A DNA stretch of 61,013 nucleotides, the filler included, from Sphacelaria rigidula (Eukaryota), in NCBI GenBank assembly GCA_964200075.2. It is 9 parts of 9 records of this genome, joined end to end, with 100 filler letters (N's around TTAATTAATTAA, not from the genome) between each part and the next. Parts side by side here need not be neighbours in the genome. Positions count along the whole stretch, not along the records: positions 54,324 to 61,013 come from CAXNAA020018605.1; 8 more parts are not named here. One strand, given 5' to 3'. The stretch's first letter is position 1, and every line of letters starts with the position of its first letter. The translations under genes were made by a program, and so were the position numbers. Positions 210 through 61,013 of the stretch are shown one piece after another. The notes under the pieces are model-generated. The model made no database searches. It saw nothing but the letters and a program-made list of their open reading frames with translations, and had not been told where the DNA came from.

Positions 210-1800
210 CTAGAGATATGCATCACTATCGCATTCACTGCAGGCCACATGTCGGCACCGCATCAAACTATATAGTAAGCTGCTGTATGCATTCCCCGGT
301 TGTCCTTTGTACCGTGCATTCTTCTGAGGCGGTGTCTCGGCAGCGGTGTTGTCGGGCACAAGTGCGGTCGCCGTTTGCGAACGTACACAGGAGAACTGGC
401 TTGCTCTCGATGTGAAGAGCAGAAAAAGACCTGTGGAGATCTTATTGCCTGCTGTGCTGCGACGAGCGCACGCAAACGCGTAGTCTGTACGGTGGAGCAC
501 TGTCTACAGCTTCGGGTCTGATTGGTAGATCTGAGCACAAAGCTGACAGAAAATGAGCATGCTGCAAACTCTGCTCTGGGCTGTCCAGCGCCTCTTGTTT
601 CGACAACGAAATATTGCCGCTGATGATCTCGGGTACAGCAGCATAGATCCAGAGGGCGAGAAACCCTGGGCGAGTTTCGAAACACAACGCAGCATCCCGC
701 GTAAATACAACCACTGCTGTTGAGCACCGCATCAGGATGCAGGTATTCTAGTTGCTCGTGGCAGCATACTCTGTGGCTGTGGCCAAGATTGTACGCGATT
801 ATGGAACCATACGTTCGATAGCCCCTTCATGGATTTCCTACCTGCGCAATTCAACAGTTCGTCTTGTAATTTGTGCTTGTTGCTGGTGCTCAATTCGGCG
901 AGACAGGGTGTTTTCGGTAAGGTGATCTCGGGCAATCGTAGTTGTGACAAGAGAAACGTTGTTGATGATTATGGAGGTGTCCATAATACATTATGGTCAC
1001 CAGTCAATTGCGTCATTGCCGTTCCGAGTGTTTCCCCGTTTCACAAAGAGGTCACGAGAAAATATAGCTACATAAGTTTTGGACGCCATACACGTGAAGA
1101 CAACATCATCCTGTCGTTCATTCGTTGAGGATCCTTGCTTGGCATGAGACCAATGGACCGAGAGATCGTGTGAGGCCGCTTCTTGTTGTGCTACTCGAAA
1201 ACATTTGTTGCTAAAAGCCTATTTTGGCAATTCAGTGCCAATTTTCGCGGGGAAAAGGTGCTTTGCGGCTTGTGCCACGGCAGAAAGACGCGCCGTTGTA
1301 CTGGATGGGAGGACTCCATGTGGCGCACATCTTCAATCTTTCGTGGGCCCAAGTTGACTTTTGGCCGGACAAATGGTTTCTCACCCAACCCCAAAAACAA
1401 CACCACCATGTATCCTCGACATCATCGGTGCTTTCTCGGAGACCCCCCAAGGTGTTTGTAAGTTGTTTGAGATACAGTATACTGTCCCACTGAAAGCCGA
1501 AGTGAACGTACCAAACGGTCGGGAAGGGCGCTGAATAACTTCTGTATCCTTGCAGACTATTCAGGGCATCTTTGACTTTTCCGGTGGTCGAAGTACGTTT
1601 ATTGCCAGGCCTGCCATTCCTTCGACGAACGATCAAAGTCCAGATTTTTTTCGTTTGGTGCGGTTCATCCCAAATGGCATGTTTTGAGAATCGGGAGTAT
1701 GACCACCCTTTGATGAAGGCTTGCGTTGCTGGAAAGGCCCACGTCAAGCAGCTACTGATGTTTGTGAAAGCTTCAAGCCTTTCAACTGCGGATCGATGAT
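210..1800 (-). pseudogene. Highly decayed ORF remnants, possibly a transposon-borne Ulp1/C48 protease plus C-terminal Cys-rich (PHD-like) finger
   Basis: Frame-shifted pieces in plausible order: NERQDDVVFTCMASKTYVAIFSRDLFVK, IIAYNLGHSHRVCC, GAGQPRAEFAACSFSVSF, VACSECD; many stops and frameshifts. Confidence 0.25.
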
Positions 1801-4800
1801 GAGTCACAGCAAAGAAATAAACGACATGTACAAAGCGTAAAGTGAGGACGGAAAACATCAGCGCATACACGAGCGGTTTGGGTCCCACGGCGTGCCTGTG
1901 CAGCCTAATGGCACACACGGCGAACGCAGCCCGCGCCAAAATGCGTCCTCCTGACTAATGAGGAGGCCTTCCTGGAAGGGCCGCTGGTGACGAACAAAAT
2001 ACGCTATTCGCTTCATTTCCTTCCCTAATCAGACCTTACATGCTCCAGAAAGGCGTGCAGCAACCACGCCAAACATTGTGCAGAAATAAGTTGCTACCTC
2101 GTCAGCCGTCCTGTGTGCGTATCCAGCATGCGACAATGAATCCGAACGTAGAATGCCGGGATGACGCAAATGATCATGAATGAAATATTCCAATGTATTA
2201 CCACAACACTAACTGTGAAAAAGAGGCGAATCCGGTCGCAGAAGATCAAGGGTACCTAGTGACGACCCCAAACATGAAAGCTGTACAGGCCAAATCACGC
2301 GCATCACCCAAAAAACTCTCATCGGCAAAAATTGATGCAGTTTTGAGGAGTCAGCCCCTGAAATTTTGTACAAATATGCTACGGGTCATGACGCAACTTT
2401 TGAAGGCCGAGGTTTTGTTACTCTTTTAATTTTTTCACCGTCTTTCGGGGGTCTGAGTTTTTGGGGGAAACTTCGATCCAGTCGGACCGCCGTGAATCGG
2501 TGAGTAGAAAGAAACCCTCGTTCATCCCAAGTTACGTAATGATTCAGCACATATGTGTAATTTTTCAGAATCTAGGTCCTGAAAACGTCGCGAAGTTTTT
2601 CGCGTTTATGCGATGAGTGTTTTCGTGCCACGGCGAAACCGCAAACTACTCAATTTTGGTATCAAAATTGTGGCTTTTGGCCTTCTTTGACGTGAACATG
2701 AAAGTTCAAGCATCAGTTGGTCGAGCTTGGCCACGAAGCTTTGCAGCGCGCTTCCCTGGGTTATGCAGCGACAGCTCGTTTGCGAAAAAATGAAGAAAAT
2801 ATATCGCAGTGCCGGTTTCCCGGGATCCCAGAATGAAGATTACTTCAAAAAAAATACTTGGGCCCCGTCGGACCCCTGGAAAACGGTGAAGAAGTCGAGA
2901 AGTAAAACAATTTCGTCCATGGAAACTTGCGTAATGACCCGTAGCACATTTGTGCGAAGTTTCAGGGTCCAACTCGTAATAACTGTGTGAAGGTTTGCAT
3001 GTTTGTGCGAGGATGTGAGCTTGAAACATGCAATCTCTCAACCACCTAGTTCTAATATTAAAACGTTTTTCTGGGGTGAATTGACGTCAAGGCAAGAAAA
3101 CTGTATGATGTTTCCGAGAGTCTCGACCAAGCTTTGCAGATGTGTGCCTTGGATTACAGTATTTCCGGACGCATCATATCATTCTTTTGCCTCTGAAGCA
3201 TTCTGTACCGCCTTCCGGGGATCTTCATACTGGGACCCCCAGAAGGCGGTAGAGAACAGAGAAACTTCGAAACCTTGTCAAAAGTGCAACTTTCCCATTT
3301 GGAGCATCACTACTTACGGAACTGTCAACTTTGAGAGTGATCTGAGCTTTCTACAATAGGTGTAAGGAAAAGCGTCACGAGGCTCCTGGACCTTTCGTGC
3401 GGATCATTAGTGGAAATTCGACGATGCCAACACTCCACATCACCGAAACATTACGGTTTGGGGTATAATTCGACCTCGTTGTAACCGTTTTCTCATATAT
3501 TTTTTTCGATGAACTCTTGAGCTGATGGCAGTTACTGCGATTTGAAGCATGTCGAGATTCGGTGAAAATTGGGCTTGGAATTCATGTTTTCAATATCAGA
3601 CAGTTTGAAGGGCGCTGCTTGTTCGAAGTACCTTTTCACCCTCAGCGCTACCCGTATGATCTCAAACACTGAACTGGCTATGTCACGGTATTCAGCTGTC
3701 GATGGTGGCCAGTATGATGTCATGTACGCGACTTTTGCGTGGGTATTACGAAAGGCATTTGCTGATGACACAATTTTGAGTACCATGTAGTATTCGGGAA
3801 CTAAAGAGCAACGCTACGGTAGGGTTTGCACTTTTTTAGCGAAAACGTTTCTCGGGTTTGCTCGGGATGTTGGACGGATCATTTTGAGAATCGGGATCAT
3901 TTTCATTTGAAAAGGATTGAACAAGATGCCGGTTCACGAAAAGGCCCCTGCGTGCAAACACCATGTTTTTAGAAGTTCGGTCCCCGGACATTTGAGTTAG
4001 ACAGTAAGCCCCATATTTTTGGACTCCGACAAACAAGACCCAGAAACAAAAAGTGCAACCCCTACCGTAGCATTGCTCCAAAGTATATCGAAATCGGTAG
4101 AGACAAGAAGCGAACTGGACCCCCTCCAAGGCGGGCAGAGGCTATTGTGCTACAGCTCTCGATCAGAAGCCCGATCACTTCCGCGGCTACCACCTCTCGC
4201 AAGTCGGGAATTTTCCTCGCGCGCTTGTTCTTGTATTTGCCTTACAATGGCATTTTCTTTGCTCAGATCGGCTGTCAGATGCACAAAAAAAAAACTGAGG
4301 GGAAAATTTGAGGCCTCCCCATGGTTCTGGAACGATCTTAGCGGAGAACGCCCTACTTCGTTTTCGAGATAGTGCTTTTTCACCGGGTTCTTCCGCCCTT
4401 TCAGACCAACTTTTATGAGAGCTGTTCAGAACAGTGTTGTTCCTTTTCCATTGTCTGGAGGATTTGGTGCCAGTGACATACGAGCTGGCATCGATCGACC
4501 TAAACATAATTTTTTAATGATTTAACGGCATCTTACTGAGACGTGAAACGTGATTATGGCCTCTAACTCGTGAAAAAACATGGGTCGATCAACAACTTTT
4601 CATCATACCCTATTCATTGTCCATATCAATTTTCAGGGATCAACTCCAAATATTGAAGGGAAAACAAGCCGTTTAGCGACCGGGCCGGTTGGAATTCGGG
4701 ACAGCATTTTGCAGGCCACTCGCCGGCCCACGTTCGGTGTCTGTGCATTGAAATTTTGTGTCGGGCCTCGCTGGGGCATGATGAACCAAAGTAAGTGGGT

Positions 4801-5083
4801 CAGTTCGGTGTTGATTGATATATTTCACTGGTTTAGGGCGTATGAGACGCAAAAGCAATGTTCATGTCTCCTCACAATTCCCCTAAAAAACGAAAAGAAA
4901 TGAAAATGGACGAAAAAATCAAGGATATACACACTACACGTTCATGTTCACGTTACGTTCATCACGTTTTTGAAAATTAACGTTCACGTTTCGTTTCGTT
5001 TGGCACGCGAAATTTTTTTAACGTTGCGTTAACATTTTAGCGAAAATTTTACATCACGTTCACGTTACGTTTTGTTGAATGTG

Positions 5084-6453
5084 ACGTAATATGAAACGTT
5101 TCATGAAACGTGTAACATCTACTATTACGTTTCGTTGACACGTGTGACGGTCGAAGGTAAAGTTGTTTCTTGTGCATGTCGCGGCTCATTCACCAGTGTT
5201 TACGACGTTGTAACGTGTCGTTTAACGCGTGACGCTACCGTGTAAGTGACGTCGACAGTGACTCGTCGTATGTCTGAGAGTAGGCGCATTATGCGATTGT
5301 GTATCGTTACTTTTCCTACAGTGTATCGTTCATTCGTTTTTTACCGTATTATGTTAATATCTACTCTTATCGTTTCATCTTTTTGGTTTCAATTTTCCAT
5401 TTTTGAATGCTTGGTCATTCGCTCAACAGCACATAATGTACACACAACAGATCGTGAACATGATTGAACGCCGGCTTGAGTCGGCCCGGCATTTCGCAGA
5501 CAAAACTATATCGAGTACCCTTGGCTCCATATATCTTAACATGTACATAAGTAAGATAGTTCATCACGGCCGTCAAAGGCAGACGTACATGTGTATGTAT
5601 GCATGTATGTATGACAGATTTACACCGCGGTCCAGGCAATCCACCCACACCTTTTATTATGACCGATCTTGCGTCGTTTTTTTTTCCAATTTGGGAGCTC
5701 ACGTTTTTCAAAATCTGAGGCGGTTACGGGTGTTTGTAAACAAAGTAGAACCTGCACGTGTACCATGGTGCACGCAGAAGTCATATTCTCTGCACTAGCA
5801 TGCATTACCACGTACGTGCATCTACATGTAGCCTTGAACCTTACAGTCAACGCGGTTTAGAACTAGAGATATTACCGACATCAGCGCTGCCAAATGCGAA
5901 CCTGCTTCCCGTCGTCGCGAGCAAATGATCGTCTACCTTATACTTTATTATTGTCTGTGCAATGTACAGGGTGTTTGTATCCGTATACTACTACTGCCTG
6001 TTGTATTTGCAAAGTACAAAAACCACCTCGTACTGTGTTTGCAAATACAGCGTATACTTGTAATCTTGCACTGCAATACTGTGTTCGCGAGTACAGCTGC
6101 GTTCGCGAGTACAGCCTTTACTTGTAACCTTGCACTACTGTGCTTGCAGAGTACAGCCTGTGGTCGGAAAAACAGTAGTACCACGTTACAAGTGCAGCCC
6201 GCACTTGTACTATGTTTACTACGTACAGCCTGTGCTTGTAACCTCGTACTGTCAGCGAAATACACGGTCTGTACTTGTACCGTTGTATAATGGTTACTTC
6301 GTCTTCGAGGATTTCAGAAATCATTGCAGACTTGAAGTGTGCACCGCTTCATGTAATGTGTTCATGACGTCTCATGCACGTGAAACGTTTCATGCACGGG
6401 TAACGTGTAATACAGTAGTCCTTACACGTTCCATGAAATGTTTCATATTACGT
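5084..6453. mobile_element. Non-autonomous TIR element (~1.37 kb) with ACGT-rich subterminal motifs
   Basis: 5084-5114 acgtaatatgaaacgtttcatgaaacgtgta is the near-perfect reverse complement of 6423-6453 tacacgttccatgaaatgtttcatattacgt. Confidence 0.65.
5640..6290. mobile_element. Partial copy of the 55208-56494 TIR family nested inside the 5084-6453 element, with degenerate short tandem motifs
   Basis: ttttattatgaccgatcttgcgtcgtttttttt...gggagctcacg matches the 55250-55300 TIR; cgcgagtacagcc...cttgtaacct matches the reverse complement of 56101-56135. Confidence 0.6.
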
Positions 6454-49989: not shown

Positions 49990-52789
49990 CCGGAAGTATA
50001 AAATACACTTCGTTCGAGTATAGCCTTTTCAGTGCGCTGCAAAAGAAAGCGTGGGGGAAAATGCCTCGCTGGCAGAGAAAACTCGGCAAAAGTGGTGAAC
50101 ATATGAAATGATACATGTACATAATACACATACATGGGTTGAATGAAGGGAGAAAAAGCGCGCGAGTCATCGCTTTGTCCGCTTCGATCGAGCAAGTATA
50201 TATTGCCCTCCGCGAAAAATAAACAGACGTGAACAAACAAACACAACTGATGAGGGAGCCTCCAACTACAAAGAGCGATGTTTTCGTGAGATTGAGAGTA
50301 GAGGATACGATTGAGAAGGAGAAGCGGTCAATTGGTGATTTCATCGTTTCAGTTCCGAGATACCCCTCCGCGAGGCCGTTACCGAAGCAGCGGGCTAACT
50401 CACAGGTATTAACCTGCGAAGCACCGGCGCAGAGATGATCATATGAAGTCAGTGTTGCGCCAAAAGCAAAAACCTTTTTTCGGAACAAAATCTTACCGTG
50501 TTGCCCTCTAGTGCGCACTGCTGCAGCGCACAGCACCAGATATAGCGACTTGGAACTGTTGACTGTGGTTTGCACAGCCTATGAGCGATGTTTCAGCGCC
50601 TCGCAGCGGCTGCAGCGCGCTTAGGGCCGTGCGCCATGAAGTGCACAGCTCAACAGACTGTATGCCGATCGGTGCACTACAGATGGTCATGATCCAGAAA
50701 GGACCGCAGTACAGACCGGTGCAGTGTTACGCCGGAGGTTAGTGTCACGTTTCCCACCATCACCACCAAAATGAAGACGCGACGGAGCCTAAGAAGTGTG
50801 AAGAAGGTTATATAGCAACTAAAGCGATACACGGCTGTATTATGTATCCAAAGCTACCTTCTCATCCCAGTCCGGCTCGATTCCACCCAATATAGCTCAA
50901 AAACCAACGATGGATATCCCTAGAAAAAGTACTGATTCTTTGTACCAACGAGAAAGTCATTTTCCAACATATTCGTCCTTCACGCGACAGAAGATTACTC
51001 ACCACTGACGGACGTCATAAAGCCGAAACTCTGCAGGCAGGTACTACTAGACACTAGCAGTCGTTCAAGCCCTGGCAGACCTTAATTGAGTGTCGAAACA
51101 GTGCAATATCTGGAGTAGATGATCTTCACTTCACCCCAACTTCCCATCTTGTGACAAGAGTGTTGGTCGCCAAGAAGTGGAGGACTGGTAGGTACGCGTT
51201 TTTGCTACACAGAGCAATTCAATTTGTGTCGATAGCTGCCGTGTGCGTCGAGATATTGCCATCTCGCTGGCGGGTGTTATAACATGTGAGGTGCGGCGTG
51301 AAAACCCATCGGGTCACATGTGATACCTGATGTCCACATTGAGCAGGTAGTAATTGCGCCGCGTCCATTTGGTTTACAGCGTGGGGAATATCTTCTCCCG
51401 CAAGCATACATGCAACAATCAACACTGCCTGCCAGTGGAAAAGATGTTCCAGACATGTGCTTGTCATTGTCGCTGGGGCGGCGCATGAAGCGTGCCTACG
51501 GGATCGCCGCGCAAGGTGTAAACGCACACTTGACTGATTGATTGATTGATTATCTCGCATTAGCTGCTTGCGACAATCCGGCCTGAGGTCAGGAGCAGCA
51601 AAAATAGAACAGAAAAATAAAAATAAAGAAGAAAGAAAGGACCAGAAAAAGAGAGGAGCAACGGCCTCAGAAAGGAAAGAAAGGGGGCAGCGATAACAAC
51701 AAAACACCACCACCACCACCACCACCACCACCACCAAGCAACAAGAACAACAACAAAATAACGACGAACAAACACAAACACAAACACGAGCAACACACAC
51801 ATATGATGACCGCGCATTATGTAGCTGATTGCAACACTCCAGTTCGTGATCAGAGAAAAAAAAGGAGAAAAATGAAAAAAAATGAAAGAAAAGGAACACT
51901 CACGGTCTGCCGATTCCTTGTGTCGTCAGTGATACTGTAAGCTGTCGAACACAAAAGAGAGATATGCCACCGAAACTGCTTCAGGGTTTGCTTCGAAGCA
52001 CACGAAGTCACATTCACTGTGCGGTGTGATGGTGACCGAAGTTTGGTCGGCAATAATGAAGGGTTAGGGACGGAAAACATCATGTGATGTTCCTCCAGCG
52101 TGCAGCACTTGGAACCACTGTTCTGCGACATGGAGGATGGATTACGTGTTCCATCTTTATCACGTACCCCCCCCCCCCCCACCATGACCACAGAACATAT
52201 GCACATCGGACCCCAGAAATTCGGTTGTCGAATTTCAATCTTGTATGGCATGCAGAAATTGGTGACAGCTATCGGTACGTGAAGGAATGCAGGCATATTG
52301 AAAGAAAACATTGTCAACATATATGAAGATTGTAATGAACCGACTCATCATCGTCAACGAAAACCGTTGTCCTCAATTTTCACGATCGGTTGTTATCACA
52401 CGAAATATTCGTGGCGGTTCGCCCGCTGTGCAGAGCGCTATGAACGCCGCCCGACGACTGGAGTCCACGCACGTGTGATGGTCGTGTGGCACAGTATTCC
52501 ATAGGGGTCTCTGCAACACCACGTCTTGATCATCATTTGCGCTTTATTAGTTGTTCGTTCCACTTTTATAGTATCACGCATTATCTTGATATACAACCGG
52601 CGATTCGCCCAAGGGTGGAGCCGGACGACCCGCCGTAGACGCCTGCACACAAGGGCGCACCGCATCAGGCACTCTACAACGTCCCCATCAACCCTACGCA
52701 CGGGTTATAACTTCCGCCCGCTGAAGAAAACTCCCACGGTTACTTCTATACCTACGCAACTCATCTGCAAGAAACATGTCTACGACTTT

Positions 52790-54223: not shown

Positions 54224-54400
54224 NNNNNNNNNNNNNNNNNNNNNNNNNNNNNNNNNNNNNNNNNNNNTTAATTAATTAANNNNNNNNNNNNNNNNNNNNN
54301 NNNNNNNNNNNNNNNNNNNNNNNGTCCCTCACTGAATAGCCCTCTTGTCCAGATCGTCTGGCAGAGGCTCTAATCCCCAATTTGTACAATGCCGTGTTTA

Positions 54401-54857
54401 TATCCGTGAGATTCAGAGGGTAGTTCAAGATTCAGAGTGAGACCCGAAACGATCGACTTTCCCGTAGATTTTGACGTGGCCGCAGTTCAAGGAGTAATGC
54501 GCCCAGCTGGTGAAGCGGGGGCTTCAATGAAAGCTGTCACCTACACGATCAATTTGACACAACATCACTTGATCGCAACTACGTAGTCAGTCCATTGCAA
54601 CAAAAGATCCCTTCTTTCAGGAAAAACCGATTAGTGCCTGAAACAGTTTCAGTTCCGAAATCCCCCCCCCTCCAGGCGTAAAAATGCTTTGTGCAGTATC
54701 TCACCAACCAGACCGCCGAAATACTCGAATGGGGTACTGTGCGGTAGCTGCATGCTCAGCACGTGTGCTCAAGCAAAAAGAAAGAAAAAGTGTTTCCTGT
54801 TAGGAACGCTAGAGCATCCACTCTGAATCTGAAACTACCCTCTGAATTTCACGAATA
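54401..54857. mobile_element. Second copy of the 48003 MITE, with 39-bp TIRs
   Basis: tatccgtgagattcagagggtagttcaagattcagagtg vs reverse complement of cactctgaatctgaaactaccctctgaatttcacgaata. Confidence 0.88.
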
Positions 54858-55207
54858 GGGTCTTCCGAGCGCATCACGATGAGAAACCCAGTGGAGCAAT
54901 AATATTTTGGCTTTCACCTCCTATGCGCGCCTGAGGCTTCGCATAATTCCGATTTTTGCGCCTAAATCCTGTGTTTTTCAAGGCGCTTATTTTGGGTTGT
55001 GAAACGCTTAGTGGGCATATCATGCGTATAAATTGCGCATATTGCCTATGCGCCGCCTGCGGCCACTGTGCAGATTCCCTTAGAGGTCTCTGTGGCACGA
55101 CAAAACCGCATGTAGACTGGGTTGGACAATGCCATGTTCGAGATTCAGAATCATTCTTTCGTCATGATACCACACGCCTTTTTTTATGAATATGTGAACG
55201 CAATCAT

Positions 55208-56494
55208 TATATCCACCTACATAGGTGGATCCTTATTTCCACCGTAACCTTTTATCATGACCGATCCCGCGTTGGTTTTTTTAATTCGGGAGCCCACTTG
55301 TTTTCATCAGCTACCCGTTACAGATGTGTGCAAACAAACTGGGTTCGGGTAACGAGCAAAACCAGAGTCAAGTTTTTGAATTTGAGCGCGCCACTTCTAT
55401 AAACCCGCTACAAGCGCTTCCGTCTGATACGATGGCAACACAAGCAAAAGCACAAGACATCTCTTCAATGGAATTAGTTGGGAGCAGGGCCTTCCGTCCA
55501 AAAACAAACAAAACAAATGCGTGTGAGCACGCCACGGTGGGCAAAAAAATGCACCTGAAATGTCTTGCCTTCATCAATCTATCGGTCCAAACTTTGAGAG
55601 TCTTTTGATGATGAACATCTGGGCCGAAATGGCAACCCCCAACCCCCCTTCCACTCTGAACGTCCATCAAAAATGATTACACAATTCAAAGGAAACGGTA
55701 AGTACGTAGCAGACAAGACGAAACAAATGAGTGTATGCAGCAGAGATGAACATAAAGAGGACCGACGGCGTATCGAAGTCAAGCCAGCACGAGTCAATGT
55801 CGAGCACGACTGAAAACACCCACTTCGATCTTTCATCATCCGGTGGTGCCGTGGATGAGATTTTTTTCTCGAGATGGTGGGCATAATACATTGTGTACGA
55901 TGTAGACTTTACTGCGGTATAAACGTAGTACAATCAGTGCCAGGGTGTTGCAGCAGGCGAGAGTATTCACAATACAGGCCGTGGATTTGCGAGCAGTACG
56001 ACATTACAACTATAGGCTATGCTTCGCAAACATGGCACAGCTGTAGTCTCTACTTGTTATCTTGTACTACTCCAGGTCCGAGTACAGACTCTTCTCTGCC
56101 AGGTTACAAGCACGGGCTGTACTCGCGAGCACAGTAGGTAGCTGTGCTTTGCCAATACAGTACAGTACCACACCGACTTCACTGTGGGGTTCGAGGTCAC
56201 ATGTAGCTGCACGTCCTGGCAGTGGATGCCGATGCAGAGGATATGACTACTGACTACTGCCTGCACTACCGTACTACACGTGAAGGCTTCACTTTTTTTA
56301 CTGCGTGTGTGTTACCGCTGTGTACTACTGCCTGCACTCCGGTACTACGCGTGAAGGCTTCAGTTTGTTTGCACACATCCGTAACGGGCAGCTGGTGTAA
56401 AAAATGTGGGCTACCGAATTAAAAAAACAGCGCGGGATCGGTCATGATAAAACGTTACGGTGGAAATAAGGATCCACCTATATAGGTGGATCTA
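55208..56494. mobile_element. 1.29-kb non-autonomous element with ~130-bp TIRs, each starting with a 20-bp palindrome
   Basis: 55211-55341 is the reverse complement of 56361-56491; termini ATCCACCTA(C/T)ATAGGTGGAT, flanked by TA. Confidence 0.88.
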
Positions 56495-56699
56495 CTTAAT
56501 GCGACATGTGAATGTAGGACACATGTATCGACAACAATACAGGAAAGTCCCTGGCCGGTTTTGAGCCCGCAGTCAAGTGCATGCAAAGTCAGTACAAAAT
56601 GTAACAGTATGTCTTCGGCGAGCACCTTTCAGTTTCCGTAGTTACATGCACGCTGCTGATGTCTCTGCTTCGTGTTTCACAACAACACTACAGTGTGAA

Positions 56700-57800
56700 G
56701 CTATGCTGGCAGGGCGAGAAGGGTCAGGTAGAGCCGAAAGACTGCGAGCGGAGTCTTTACTTCCAAAACAAATGGTTGACTTCTTCAGCTGTCCGGCTGT
56801 TCGTCGAACCCCCCTGCCCTCTGGAAACCCGCGAATGTTCCCGGACTGTCAGTCGGTGAAACTGTTCCCAGGCGGACCACGGCCGCAAAACAGTGGATCT
56901 GGGTACAGTAATCGATTTCAAGATTCAAACCTGTGCCGGTTGTTTTCACTGGGTACGATGGCAAGAAACAGTAAGCCGGTATGTGTCGGCCGGCGCTGCA
57001 GTAAAGCACGGTTACAGCAGGCTGTGGTAGCACACAGTTTCGGTATATTTTGATGTCGAGCTTGCCTAGTACAGTACCGCCGTGTGTTGTGTGAAATCTA
57101 CATAATATGTTCGCTTTGCTTCATGACAGCGGGAGTCACACATCTGCCCAAACTTGGCGACGAGATATAAGATACCCACTTGGTTCTCGATACCGATGGA
57201 GCACCCGGGTTCCTCTTTGCGTTCTCAACGAGGTTCTTCGAAACAGCAAACGCTCTTGTGAAAAAACTATTACACGCCACGCCGTCAGAAGCATACATTG
57301 ACCCCATGGTTTTACCGGGTTTCTGATACGGCACGTGCTCTCGAACCCAAGCCAGTCTTGCTTTGCGCGCGACGACACGACTGAGGTCCTCTTGCTCCGG
57401 CGCCAACCTCTGAGCGTCAAGCGTCCCTTCAACGAAACGTTCGACACAGCGTAGACTACGACAGCACTCGAAACTCGATGCAAGCATATCTTGCAGCGCA
57501 ATAGGCTATGTGGAGAGAGTTGCACCCGCCACCGGGACGATCGACTCGAGAGGGGATTTCTTGCCTTCTTTTTGGAGTCAAGCCGCCCGCATGCCCACAT
57601 GATTCGATGCTCCGCTCTGTGGGTTCAACCGAGGTCGCGAACAGGAGGCGGCCCGCCTCTGTAGTAGGCATGAACTCACGCCCCGCACTAATTCCTCTGG
57701 TAAGTGGGTGTGTGAGAGTAGGTGATGTCAATACGTTTATGACAGCGTGGGCGGGCTGGTCATGTTTGGACGGCAAGGACGACGCTGGTGTTGTTCCACG
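56700..57800 (-). pseudogene. Frameshifted remnant resembling the N-terminal Cys motif region of Sola/DUF7869-type transposases
   Basis: ECCRSLRCVERF...MYASDGVACNSFFTRAFAVSKNLVE resembles CC..C...YxxxGxxVCxxxFxxxxxIS; downstream LSALPDP; catalytic DDE region not seen. Confidence 0.35.
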
Positions 57801-58336
57801 TTTTGATCAATCTTTCCGACAGCACAAATCAACATGCACTGACCGTCAGAATGTCGGGACAAATATCCTGTGGTCCTGTGTATAACTGACCATGTGCACT
57901 CGAAACGTGATCAGAGAATGGGACACATGTCGACAAACATCGGAATCTTTAGGTCTTTTCACATGCCTGACTGATGGTACTGTTTCAGTGGTATGGCACC
58001 TGACACGCGGCAAGTGGGTCACCATCCTACGGAAAGTGGAGCTCGTAAGAAAGACACCGTCGTACTAGGTACTAAGTAAGATATTATCGAAGAATATGGC
58101 TTATTAGTACCCATGCGAGACTGATATGACCCAGATATGTTGTCAAATTCCGAGTACAGGTGGCGTTGTGGATAACGGTAGGTAACGTTTCTCATTCGTG
58201 ACCTGCATCTAACCACAATATTGGAACGTCCTCGCCGTCCCTCGCTCGACCCCCTCCCTTACACAACGCATTGCACTGCCGCCCGCAGACTGCATACCAC
58301 AACAGTGAAGAAGCAGACAACCGTTGTTTCAGCCTA

Positions 58337-58748
58337 ATGGATTCCCCTGATAGCAGAAGTCAGCCATCAGGGACAGTAGCGCCAGTACAGCGGAACATGG
58401 AAAGCCTTCTCACCAGCCACTACGTAGGTACATTTCCGATAAAGTTATCTCAAATCGCCGTGACGTCCCTCACCCGCGAGCTGAACCCTCGTGGAGTGGA
58501 GAAGGTAATCACTTCGTTGAAGTCAAAGGGGTGGCTCACGCACAATCCGCCAGCCATAGTGATGCCACATGAAGGTGTCCCGGAGAATGGAGGAATAACG
58601 TCGGAGTTTCTTTCGACGTGCGAGTTTCGCGTCTTGGATGGAAATCGTTGGATCTCTGCGGCGAGATCGATTTTCAAGCAAGATCACAGCGTGCCGTGTC
58701 GAGTTTACCATGAGTTCGGCCCAGAGGTCATGCGCATCCTTGGCGAGG
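58337..58748 (+). CDS. First exon of a ParB/sulfiredoxin-like domain protein
   Basis: ATG 58337, donor GTGAGT at 58749; TRELNPRGVEKVITSLKSKGW...PPAIV...FRVLDGNRWISAAR matches the ParB/Srx fold pattern with an altered DGxHR motif. Confidence 0.6.
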
Positions 58749-61013
58749 GTGAGTCACCATATTGACAGATGGTATTGTCTGTAGCCACGTGCCTCTGCAA
58801 TCGTTTCGATAGCATTGAACTATCTGATGCAAGGTGTAAAATTGTCGCACGGCCTAGTGTTTAAAAATGCCAGCGTAATGATTAGGTCATACCATTTAAG
58901 CATGTAAAAAAAACGTGTCGGGGTTGAGCGTGTACGCTGTGCACGAGGATGAGAACCCTGTTCTCCGCCTGTACCGGCCAGGGATGTCACGACTGATCCC
59001 ATTGGGAGGGGGGGCTTGTTGTGGCTGCACACTAGTTTAGCGCCAGAAATTCAGGCTCGGCCTCTAACACGGCTCGTCCGCGGGTCTATGATTCAAACGA
59101 CGGTTCGCGTGTGCATGAGGTGTAGACTATGGATCCTTGGCTACTTCTCCTCGTGTTTCTCGGGTATTGTTTTCATGCTTTTCGCCTCTTTTGTTTCGGT
59201 TTCGGCGCGTTTTTGTTATTTGTTTGCGCCTTTGTTCTTTTTTGTGTGCCTTTCTTCTCTTTTAGCCCCTAAAAAGAGAAAATCGGCGCCTCAAGTGTTT
59301 CTATGCGCCTTTTCTCTTTTTCGGGCTCTAAATAACCAGTATGGCCCTACACTTCGCAGACACGAGTATGCCGGCACATATATCTTTGCTTCGGCGCCTG
59401 GGTGCTTCTGGTTCTTATTTTGCATACATATATTTGTTGACGAGATTTCGTGCGCGTCACACACCCCATGGCGTCCCTGCGGGAAATATCTGCGAGCCTT
59501 GCGACAAATCTGCGATGTCTTCCCGAAAGTCCCCAATTTCTATTCTTTGTTCTGCGATAATGTGTTACGGCCGTTTTTCTCCGACAAAAGGCAGAAATGT
59601 GTTTTGTTTCTCGCTTCTTTTGTTAATCCCGGTAAGGTGGGCCCTCCTCGCATTTTTGTGCATGGCAAGGCTGTCATTGGTCCAAACATTTTTCCATTCA
59701 TCATAATCTTCACCCTTCTCTCTGAGCCCTGTGTGAACAAGTGGCAGCGGGGGGGGGGGGGGAGTGGATGATCGTCATCGACGGGACGTGTTTAGGCGCA
59801 CGTTGTTCAGACCTTTCGTTTAATTATCAGATTCGAAATGAAAACAAAACAAAGCAGATTTCAACGTAACAGTTCTCAGGTAACATGCAATCGGACTTAC
59901 ATTGTTCGGTGTGTCGACATAATCGACAGCTTGGCTGTCGCCATTTCTCATGCCGATTCTTATGGCAGGCAAGAATAACCTGACACGAGCTGTCTATGTG
60001 GTCCAGATGCGTCGGGTTACGACCCAAACGCAGACATCTTCGAATGCCGTGCTTCAGCCGTAAAGATTATTGCAAGACACCTTCGCGTTTTTCTGGTGGC
60101 CGTTTTTGATTTTGGCCGAACAAACAACCTTGTACGCGGTTGTTGACACCTGCGATTGTATTGCTGCACTCGTTGAGACGATTCAAACACACCTTTGCGT
60201 TTTCCGGTGGCCACAGGTGATTCTTGCATCAATTGCATTTTTGCCCAAGAACGGTCTGCTGGATAAAACACGGGGCGTTTTGTTTCCCGGCTGACTGTGC
60301 TCGGACCAACATACGAGTCTGGCAAACATTATACTTCTGTCCCCCTTCGAACGCAAAGTGTCTTGGGATCGTCCGAGCGAATACAGAATGGCATATGAAG
60401 GACCAACGAGACAACCTTTTAGATATGTATTGTTGTTGCCCAGCATCAGCTGCGTCAGAGAGGAAACGTTTTTGAATAAAAATTCTGCCACATCGGTGAA
60501 TAATAACCGCGTCAACCGTTGCTGCTGCCTGCCTGCCTTCGAACAACTTTAAACGATGTCGGCGAGACTCTGCCCCCCCGCAACACGTACGACAAGCTTT
60601 ACATGTACGTTGGGATCATAACCTCGGTCCAGAAGAGGACAGGGAGTGATGCCGTCACGGGGGAACAAATAGCAAAATAGTTCATGAACGTGAGTAATGG
60701 AATGTGAAAGACGGGGTCTTCAAAGCCGGGTCTGCATTACACGGGGACGATAGTGGGCATTGAGTGAAGTTTAAAGTCGTATTGTATCATATGCGCGCCG
60801 CGGGTCATTTATGTTATATCTCCGAACCGAGTCAAGTCCGCCTATATTGTTATAAACTAGTTGCCGGAGGGTTGACGACGCGTGTACTACGTCTCCCACC
60901 CGCTCATACGCCGAGAAACAACCCGGTGTGCAGCGAACACATTAGACCTCGACCACGTATGTAATGCAACACGCACGACGGTCGCAGTGAGGTTGCCGTT
61001 TGGAGCTGGGGGG

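Follow-up and report, generated by a model that had tools for sequence, protein, structure and literature searches.

The last piece of a 61,013-nucleotide stretch of DNA from the brown alga Sphacelaria rigidula (assembly GCA_964200075.2; the whole analysed stretch is called the window here) carries what we take, at a probability of about 60% and by analogy with published elements, to be a dead copy of a ParB-like gene carried as an accessory by a brown-algal DNA transposon. A sequence-only reading of the window had proposed a compact transposon of two genes, in which a ParB/sulfiredoxin (Srx)-like gene stands head-to-head with a transposase remnant. The follow-up analysis supports the ParB/Srx exon, the splicing of the gene and the repetitiveness of the locus; it does not support a transposase remnant or an architecture of two genes. 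The whole context of the ParB-like finding is the 6.69-kb piece at positions 54324-61013, and the parts of the gene within it are listed below.

58337-58748, plus strand: exon 1 of the ParB/Srx-fold gene, with its ATG at 58337; 137 codons plus 1 base lead into a phase-1 intron.
58646-58651, plus strand: altered motif codons 104-105, which read CGT TGG (R W) against a near-invariant H R.
58749-60546, plus strand: intron 1 (1798 bases), starting with GTGAGT and ending in AA where an AG acceptor is expected.
60547-60689, plus strand: exon 2 (143 bases), with an in-frame TAG at 60678-60680 and a GTGAGT donor at 60690.
60690-61013, plus strand: first part of intron 2; exon 3 lies beyond the end of the piece, and the remainder of the gene (residues 186-301 of the relative P0002) falls outside the window.

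Exon 1 has an open frame from 58337 to 58748 followed by a GTGAGT donor at 58749-58754, and its translation contains RELNPRGVEKVITSLKSKGW and FRVLDGNRWISAAR (in longer excerpts, TRELNPRGVEKVITSLKSKGWLTHNPPAIVM and then FRVLDGNRWISAARSIF). The clean exon, donor and residue pattern that had been described from the sequence agree with this translation, and the number of relatives is far beyond chance. A phmmer search of 1.84 billion representative proteins returned 95 at E<=1e-3 and 32 at E<=1e-10, the best of which, P0002, is 94% identical (E 9.7e-80). Three of the 95 (P0018, P0063 and P0080) are repeat-protein artefacts and were set aside, leaving 92 credible relatives.

An AlphaFold2 model of the exon domain, made from an alignment of 55 relatives, has a predicted local distance difference test score (pLDDT) of 87.1 and a predicted template modelling score of 0.77, and according to this model exon 1 encodes a ParB/Srx-fold domain. 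The best Foldseek match in the PDB is ParB 6sdk (E 6e-5, probability 1.00), 11 matches stand at E<=1e-3, and all 32 matches listed are ParB/Srx-fold proteins or their kindred, namely ParB, PadC, Srx, Noc, KorB, SbnI and a serine kinase. VIA-align, an aligner independent of Foldseek, placed only 12 of 48,161 chains at Z>=2, led by PadC (Z 10.2, root-mean-square deviation (rmsd) 2.3, 91 residues aligned), Srx (9.2), KorB (8.5) and pNOB8 ParB (8.1). With a confident model and two structural aligners behind it, the ParB/Srx identification was right at the level of fold. The ESM Atlas points weakly in the same direction, with ParB_N on 11% of one cluster and with DUF6551 and DUF3723 clusters as well. 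Sequence libraries are far quieter. Exon 1 has no Pfam match at E<=1, PHROGs and NCBIfam hold nothing relevant for the exon or its family, and the 55 members reach only faint Pfam matches to GmrSD_N (E 0.029), DUF6551 (0.02) and DUF3723 (0.061). PADLOC likewise gives only faint matches, to PD-Lambda-5_A, in 2 of the 55 members (best E 6.5e-4).

The relatives of exon 1 make up a family, sized at 92 credible clusters at 50% identity in public data, that is widespread in eukaryotes, lacks a Pfam model and can be told by two marks, an LDGNHR motif and a phase-1 intron kept at a position directly behind the domain. In the alignment of 55, G102 is invariant and D101, H104 and R105 are each kept at >=90%; in the model the motif lies at the junction of strand E97-101 with helix H103-112. 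DGxHR is present in 75 of the 96 retrieved proteins and DGNHR in 62, while 8 carry motif variants and the 13 without a motif are fragments or the three artefacts. Most members are open reading frame (ORF) calls that stop a few residues past the domain with [G/C/S/R][E/K], an ending explained by read-through of a phase-1 xGT-[G/A]AG donor. A regular expression finds [GCSR][EK] at the end of exon 1 in 65 of 76 members, although inspection by eye shows at least 3 of these 65 to match by chance. Six spliced models (P0002, P0025, P0032, P0048, P0056 and P0066) continue past the donor with N..R..YD..Y. The relatives that share the intron position are only 23-50% identical, and an intron kept over such distances argues for a eukaryotic family and against recent import from bacteria. 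Among relatives of any part of the piece, only P0001 is named, a partial protein from Sphacelaria rigidula in NCBI; of the others, P0032 comes from EukProt and P0003 and P0097 from Logan. Word-indexed protein searches returned 2 relatives for the exon, 1 for the minus-strand ORF considered below and, for the C-terminus of P0032, only P0032 itself. Two scans of JGI metagenomes gave 0 relatives, their 359 and 119 pattern matches all being rejected by tblastn. Among prokaryote genomes, one Leptospira locus beside pgk gave a 35-residue match with no real ORF and was discarded as chance.

Splicing can be followed in contigs of four public sequencing runs aligned to piece 54324-61013, of which X1, X2 and X3 are DNA-like and X8 is RNA-like. 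X8 has a depth of 1906 over 58338-58560 and of 558-1231 over 60345-60790; within the intron, five of the six bins over 58784-60121 have a depth of 0 and the bin at 59007-59229 has 27.8. X1-X3 cover every bin, intron included. Two X8 contigs carry a joint from 58746 to 60547 with 'CG' between (the skipped part has the ends GG..AA), and no X1-X3 contig has it among the joints listed, 63 further joints being outside that list. Because GAC G|CT reads as the D-A of P0002, which has ILGD|ALND across its exon junction, the joint can be taken as the place where exons 1 and 2 of a sister copy meet. P0002 (301 aa) itself runs on into exon 2: tblastn places its residues 139-186 at 60549-60692 with 87.5% identity and a stop in the window. 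A loose end of X8 behind 60689 reads CTGGGTCTGAATTCCCTG, the LGLNSL of P0002 exon 3. The proposal that the gene is spliced at its GTGAGT donor is therefore borne out, both by RNA-like contigs that join 58748 to 60547 and by a donor position that is conserved across the family.

The window copy itself has decayed. In the ParB/Srx fold, a motif at the strand-to-helix junction that ends in R has a phosphate-binding role; a motif of this type is present in the family and has been lost in the window copy, which reads DGNRW (the 94%-identical P0002 reads DGNHE). Added to this NRW for NHR are the AA acceptor of intron 1 and the TAG at 60678-60680 of exon 2, standing where P0002 has E, and together the three changes mark the window copy as a pseudogene. 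This copy cannot make the ParB-like protein.

Intron 1 holds two further features. A stop-free frame of 272 aa at 58953-59768 (plus strand) is rich in F, L and C and has no Pfam match; shuffles would yield 0.005 ORFs of this kind, the surrounding sequence is rich in T, and the depth peak at 59007-59229 falls within the frame. This frame is probably compositional or a nested repeat. At 59212-59263 there is a short tandem repeat with a period of 19-20 and 2.2-2.7 copies.

The longest view of the protein comes from P0032 (843 aa), which aligns over exons 1 and 2. Its model, made with the family alignment, is confident over residues ~25-250 (mean pLDDT 51.9 overall; C-terminus <50), and its N-domain matches PadC at Z 10.0 in VIA-align. 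Foldseek alignments of P0032 to Noc, ParB and KorB extend over 199-294 columns, but with an rmsd of 12-19 A. Residues 147-250 are helical in the model (pLDDT ~63-90), and residues 147-234 have only weak winged-helix-like VIA-align matches (Z 4.4-5.0). It is thus plausible, as far as the model goes, that in the longer relatives the ParB-like domain is followed by a helical domain that binds DNA. Past the ParB-like and helical parts, P0032 continues with a Cys-rich stretch (faint RING-like PDB matches, E 0.6), an acidic run and then ~300 aa. These C-terminal 300 residues receive no assignment from domain libraries, PDB sequences or structure search; by eye, though with no tool in support, they may resemble a degenerate beta-class amino-methyltransferase. 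In P0092 (431 aa) the ParB-like domain lies at the C-terminal end, behind ~320 unrelated residues, and this protein is possibly a fused gene model.

The DNA around the gene is repeated. At >=85% likeness, 6196 contigs of X1, 6463 of X2 and 7782 of X3 fall on the 6690-base piece, most of them 90-95% alike, and all 30 of 30 bins are covered in each run. Single sites in the gene have 6-27 distinct overlapping contigs per run. At 58507, where the window reads A, all overlapping contigs (7 in X1, 6 in X2 and 9 in X3) read C. Exon bins are deeper than the intron and flanks in the DNA runs. Two sets of shorter copies, present in X1, X2 and X3, are as follows.

58317-60516, strand not assigned: segment missing from deletion-derivative copies (exon 1 and intron 1, ~2200 bases), with joints 58316->60517/60519/60520 in X1-X3, 1-3 contigs each.
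57344-57565, strand not assigned: deletion variant of 222-225 bases inside the minus-strand ORF region, with joints 57343->57566-57569.

Repetition of the locus together with copies shortened by deletion is what a mobile element would be expected to show. Dividing the summed exon-1 depth by the depth of near-identical contigs (26,029/42 in X1, 7,642/11 in X2 and 57,650/79 in X3) gives ~600-750, a figure that is not relied on.

In the account that we prefer, the gene is a multi-exon one whose exon 1 encodes a ParB/Srx-fold domain, followed in longer relatives by a helical and possibly DNA-binding region. The repeated, transcribed DNA around it, with its internal-deletion derivatives, is most likely a DNA transposon that has the gene as accessory cargo, as published for Ectocarpus Sola1-1 and red-algal Plavaka. 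In intact copies the protein may bind a nucleotide through the DGNHR pocket, may bind the element's own DNA, and may recruit or carry a modifying activity or help to handle the element's DNA.

Several points weigh against assigning the gene to a transposon and to this type of protein. No transposase, terminal inverted repeat (TIR) or target-site duplication (TSD) was found in piece 54324-61013, so that the assignment to a transposon follows only from repetitiveness and analogy. Inverted-repeat arrays (parS-like sites) are also absent beside the gene within the 6.7-kb piece. Summed contig depth is no copy number, and at 85% likeness other repeats or organisms may contribute; X1 is labelled as a metagenome, and X8 is counted as RNA by guess only. 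The sequence-only reading had named the lack of a ParB/Srx profile match as a refutation; there is a match by structure (Foldseek to 6sdk), but the sequence searches made give no link to ParB: none of the 55 members matches PF02195 (ParB_N) at E<=0.1, and a search of PDB sequences with a profile of the family turned up no ParB. Searches of Pfam, NCBIfam and PDB sequences gave no methyltransferase match, and no oxygenase domain was seen either, in P0002 (301 aa) or P0032 (843 aa; C-terminus pLDDT <50), which leaves identity with the published ParB-methyltransferase or PAG3 genes (discussed at the end) unproven.

The transposase proposed in the first reading of this locus would have to lie upstream, where the strand opposite to the gene carries open frames.

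57098-57806, minus strand: overlapping frames (135, 162 and 116 aa) with no protein family; repeated, with RNA-like contig cover.
57735-57916, plus strand: possible 5' leader intron of the ParB-like gene, GT..AG, in one X8 contig.

A minus-strand ORF with a cysteine pattern, pointing away from the exon at about 0.5 kb, had been described, and it is present: the frame at 57098-57505 (135 aa) reads ECCRSLRC and then DGVACNSFFTRAFAVS. Further minus-strand frames are open at 57456-57806, at 56785-57120 and at 57136-57624, the last (162 aa) over nearly the same bases as the 135-aa ORF. The nearest of these frames is 0.53 kb from the ATG of exon 1 and the 135-aa ORF 0.83 kb. As an ORF, the minus-strand frame is not clearly above chance; the piece has 5 ORFs of >=135 aa, counted stop to stop, where 200 first-order Markov shuffles average 1.6 and reach 7 at most, and its long open frames are partly compositional. 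None of the four minus frames has a family in Pfam or PHROGs at E<=1, and the minus-strand peptide has 0 matches to PDB sequences at E<=10. The ESM Atlas offers no family for it either, its recognition of 2060 falling below the 2300 that is reached by 91 of 100 known-family proteins. Its only relative, P0001, is 78-82% identical and is a gene model pieced from three frames. These searches do not support the identification of this stretch as a transposase remnant; no transposase or RNase H-like domain is recognisable by sequence searches of the minus frames. X8 has a depth of 673-5232 over 57000-57891, and one X8 contig (side 35) has a joint 57734->57917 whose skipped part is GT..AG on the plus strand. 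If this joint is real, a plus-strand transcript begins within the supposed transposase and crosses the supposed promoter, which would speak against a shared divergent promoter in that interval. The transcript is plausibly the leader of the ParB-like gene, though this is a weak suggestion from a single paralogue contig. The minus-strand stretch is more likely to be non-coding, either as a leader or as flanking sequence within the same repeat, than to be a transposase.

These findings bear directly on the idea of a compact two-gene DNA transposon, with a decayed minus-strand transposase and a ParB-like gene driven by one promoter, and we consider it improbable. The two features do stand head-to-head within 0.5-0.8 kb, they have broadly similar summed depth in X1 (38,710 at 57446-57668 and 26,029 at 58338-58560), a paralogue of the minus stretch is annotated as a gene in Sphacelaria rigidula, and in the Ectocarpus survey the ParB-like gene of Sola1-1 is opposite in strand to the transposase (PMC12477816). 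Set against this are the four frames without a family in Pfam, PHROGs, PDB sequences or the Atlas, two frames open over the same bases, ORF sizes near background, the stitching of P0001 from three frames and the plus-strand joint across 57735-57916, together with the size of known ParB-carrying elements, which are at least 20 kb and not compact. A different view is that the window copy is an ordinary pseudogene among unrelated repeats, from a lineage-expanded host family of ParB/Srx-fold DNA-binding proteins. We regard this as unlikely. In its favour, the intron position is kept across relatives of 23-50% identity, the greater depth of exons than of intron and flanks in the DNA runs would make the exons the conserved part, and transposase and element ends were not found in the piece. 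However, the intron and upstream stretches also lie under many contigs at 85-99% likeness, deletion derivatives share breakpoints in three runs, and many public members are read-through or motif-variant, as expected of decaying repeats. The published algal relatives of the domain type are also transposon cargo.

Virus-like origins can be weighed in the same way. Phages and viruses often carry ParB-like domains, a point in favour of a fragment of an integrated, phaeovirus-like giant-virus genome with a ParB-like gene. Brown-algal genomes are reported to contain many viral insertions (PMC12993054). Such a fragment would not be expected to have two or more spliceosomal introns, including one that the whole family keeps, or to exist as many diverged copies of the stretch; scanning IMG/VR with P0004 gave 0 relatives, as did tblastn against 50,697 phage records, and we give this origin next to no credence. 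A bolder proposal is that this intron-bearing family, with its ParB/Srx and helical domains, provides the central protein of a brown-algal mobile element that has many copies and no DDE transposase nearby. A ParB-type protein, binding DNA in a nucleotide-dependent way or acting as a nuclease, would then itself serve in mobility, episome maintenance or self-marking of the element and would not be mere passenger DNA, a role conserved across eukaryotic lineages since before the shared intron arose. We hold this for a long shot. A dead copy of a transposon's ParB-like accessory gene is the account that we prefer.

The rest of the window can be described briefly. It consists of nine pieces of ~6.69 kb with N44-TTAATTAATTAA-N44 spacers between them.

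6692, 13483, 20274, 27064, 33854, 40644, 47434 and 54224: spacer positions; features of different pieces are not neighbours.

The claim that exon and minus-strand ORF share a contig thus holds for these two within 54324-61013, and not for the window at large. No further copy of the exon was found in the window by tblastn or by a profile of the family alignment A1 in all six frames, and an Rfam scan of piece 54324-61013 gave 0 matches. None of the 91 ORFs scanned against Pfam, and no ORF of >=110 aa in the whole window, reaches the cut-off of a Pfam family, and none matches a transposase family. The only Pfam matches at E<=0.001 are both far below their cut-offs: a weak RVT_1 match at 25993-26475 (plus strand) in another piece (E 9.4e-5, 22.6 bits against a 29.6 cut-off), which is probably a decayed retroelement, and a 'Plant cysteine-rich protein domain' match at 51608-51937. 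In the last piece, 39-nt inverted repeats at 54401-54439 and 54819-54857 (90% complementary) enclose ~457 bases and resemble a miniature inverted-repeat transposable element; in every run, the summed depth of this 457-base stretch (54401-54857) far exceeds that of any other, and in the DNA runs it is at least 1e5. Upstream of the ParB-like gene, a 143-nt inverted repeat (55199-55341 and 56361-56503, 83-90% alike) encloses ~1.3 kb, and the pair is possibly a TIR-bounded or foldback element. 'Opposite strands' joints occur in DNA contigs at 55207->56559 and 56497->56566. A repeat boundary at ~56716, suggested by loose ends at 56693, was dropped, as a 4-base indel and ordinary divergence explain them better.

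The first reports of giant algal transposons with ParB-domain accessory genes date from 2025, and this locus would add a second brown-algal lineage for such a gene family, its closest named protein being from Sphacelaria rigidula. The family is a broad eukaryotic one that is invisible to Pfam, and the conserved intron together with DGNHR (alignment A1) can be used as a handle for finding members. Copies appear from the RNA-like contigs to be transcribed and spliced. As the window copy is dead, its value is that of a marker and not of a functional gene.

Known proteins of this fold offer several comparisons. The N-domain shares its fold with bacterial ParB, Noc, KorB and PadC and with sulfiredoxin, and also a conserved motif, with R as its last residue, where the strand passes into the helix. 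The motif of ParB is GERRxRA, where the algal family has DGNHR; unlike bacterial ParB proteins, the family is eukaryotic and has introns, its identity to them is 11-21% with no HMMER link, and in the window copy both H and R are gone. DUF3723 (PF12520), a cargo domain of fungal Starships, gives faint leads in an Atlas cluster with a score of 0.92 (DUF3723 on 31% of members) and in 2 of 55 family members that match PF12520 (best E 0.061), nothing being significant. A full-text literature search for DUF3723 paired with ParB found none. One report describes DUF3723 as a gene carried by giant mobile elements of eukaryotes and as a homologue of segregation genes whose products bind DNA (bioRxiv 10.1101/2021.12.13.472469).

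Closer parallels come from genes in which a ParB-like domain is joined to a modifying enzyme. Iyer et al. 2015 note that chlorophytes and chytrids have fusions of ParB-helix-turn-helix regions with Dam-type methylases (PMC4738411). The first reading could not place the two-gene pairing in a well-described algal family; ParB-like cargo has in fact been published for both Ectocarpus Sola1-1 and red-algal Plavaka (PMC12477816; bioRxiv 10.1101/2025.02.11.637652), and the likeness to both is by published description and not by sequence. In red-algal (Bostrychia) Plavaka, PAG3 is described as a ParB-like domain joined to a 2-oxoglutarate oxygenase, with inverted-repeat arrays alongside (bioRxiv 10.1101/2025.02.11.637652). 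Like PAG3, an accessory gene of a giant algal DNA transposon, our gene has an N-terminal ParB-like domain; unlike PAG3, it has no oxygenase domain to be seen, no tandem inverted-repeat arrays beside it in the piece, and a host from another algal lineage. The 2025 Ectocarpus survey reports giant KDZ, EnSpm and Sola-1 elements (PMC12477816). Among them, the 21.5-kb Sola1-1_Ec32 has a 4-bp TSD, a 282-bp imperfect TIR, AACCG-CGGTT termini and 1989 copies, and carries a gene that joins a ParB-like domain to a C-terminal N4C/N6A DNA methyltransferase domain. This gene lies opposite in strand to the transposase, and the authors propose that its 1104-aa protein binds and marks its own transposon (PMC12477816). 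The methyltransferase domain, the Sola1 transposase and the AACCG/CGGTT termini are not seen in our piece. What the two loci have in common is a brown-algal host, a ParB-like N-domain and a transcribed gene that sits in repeated or mobile DNA.

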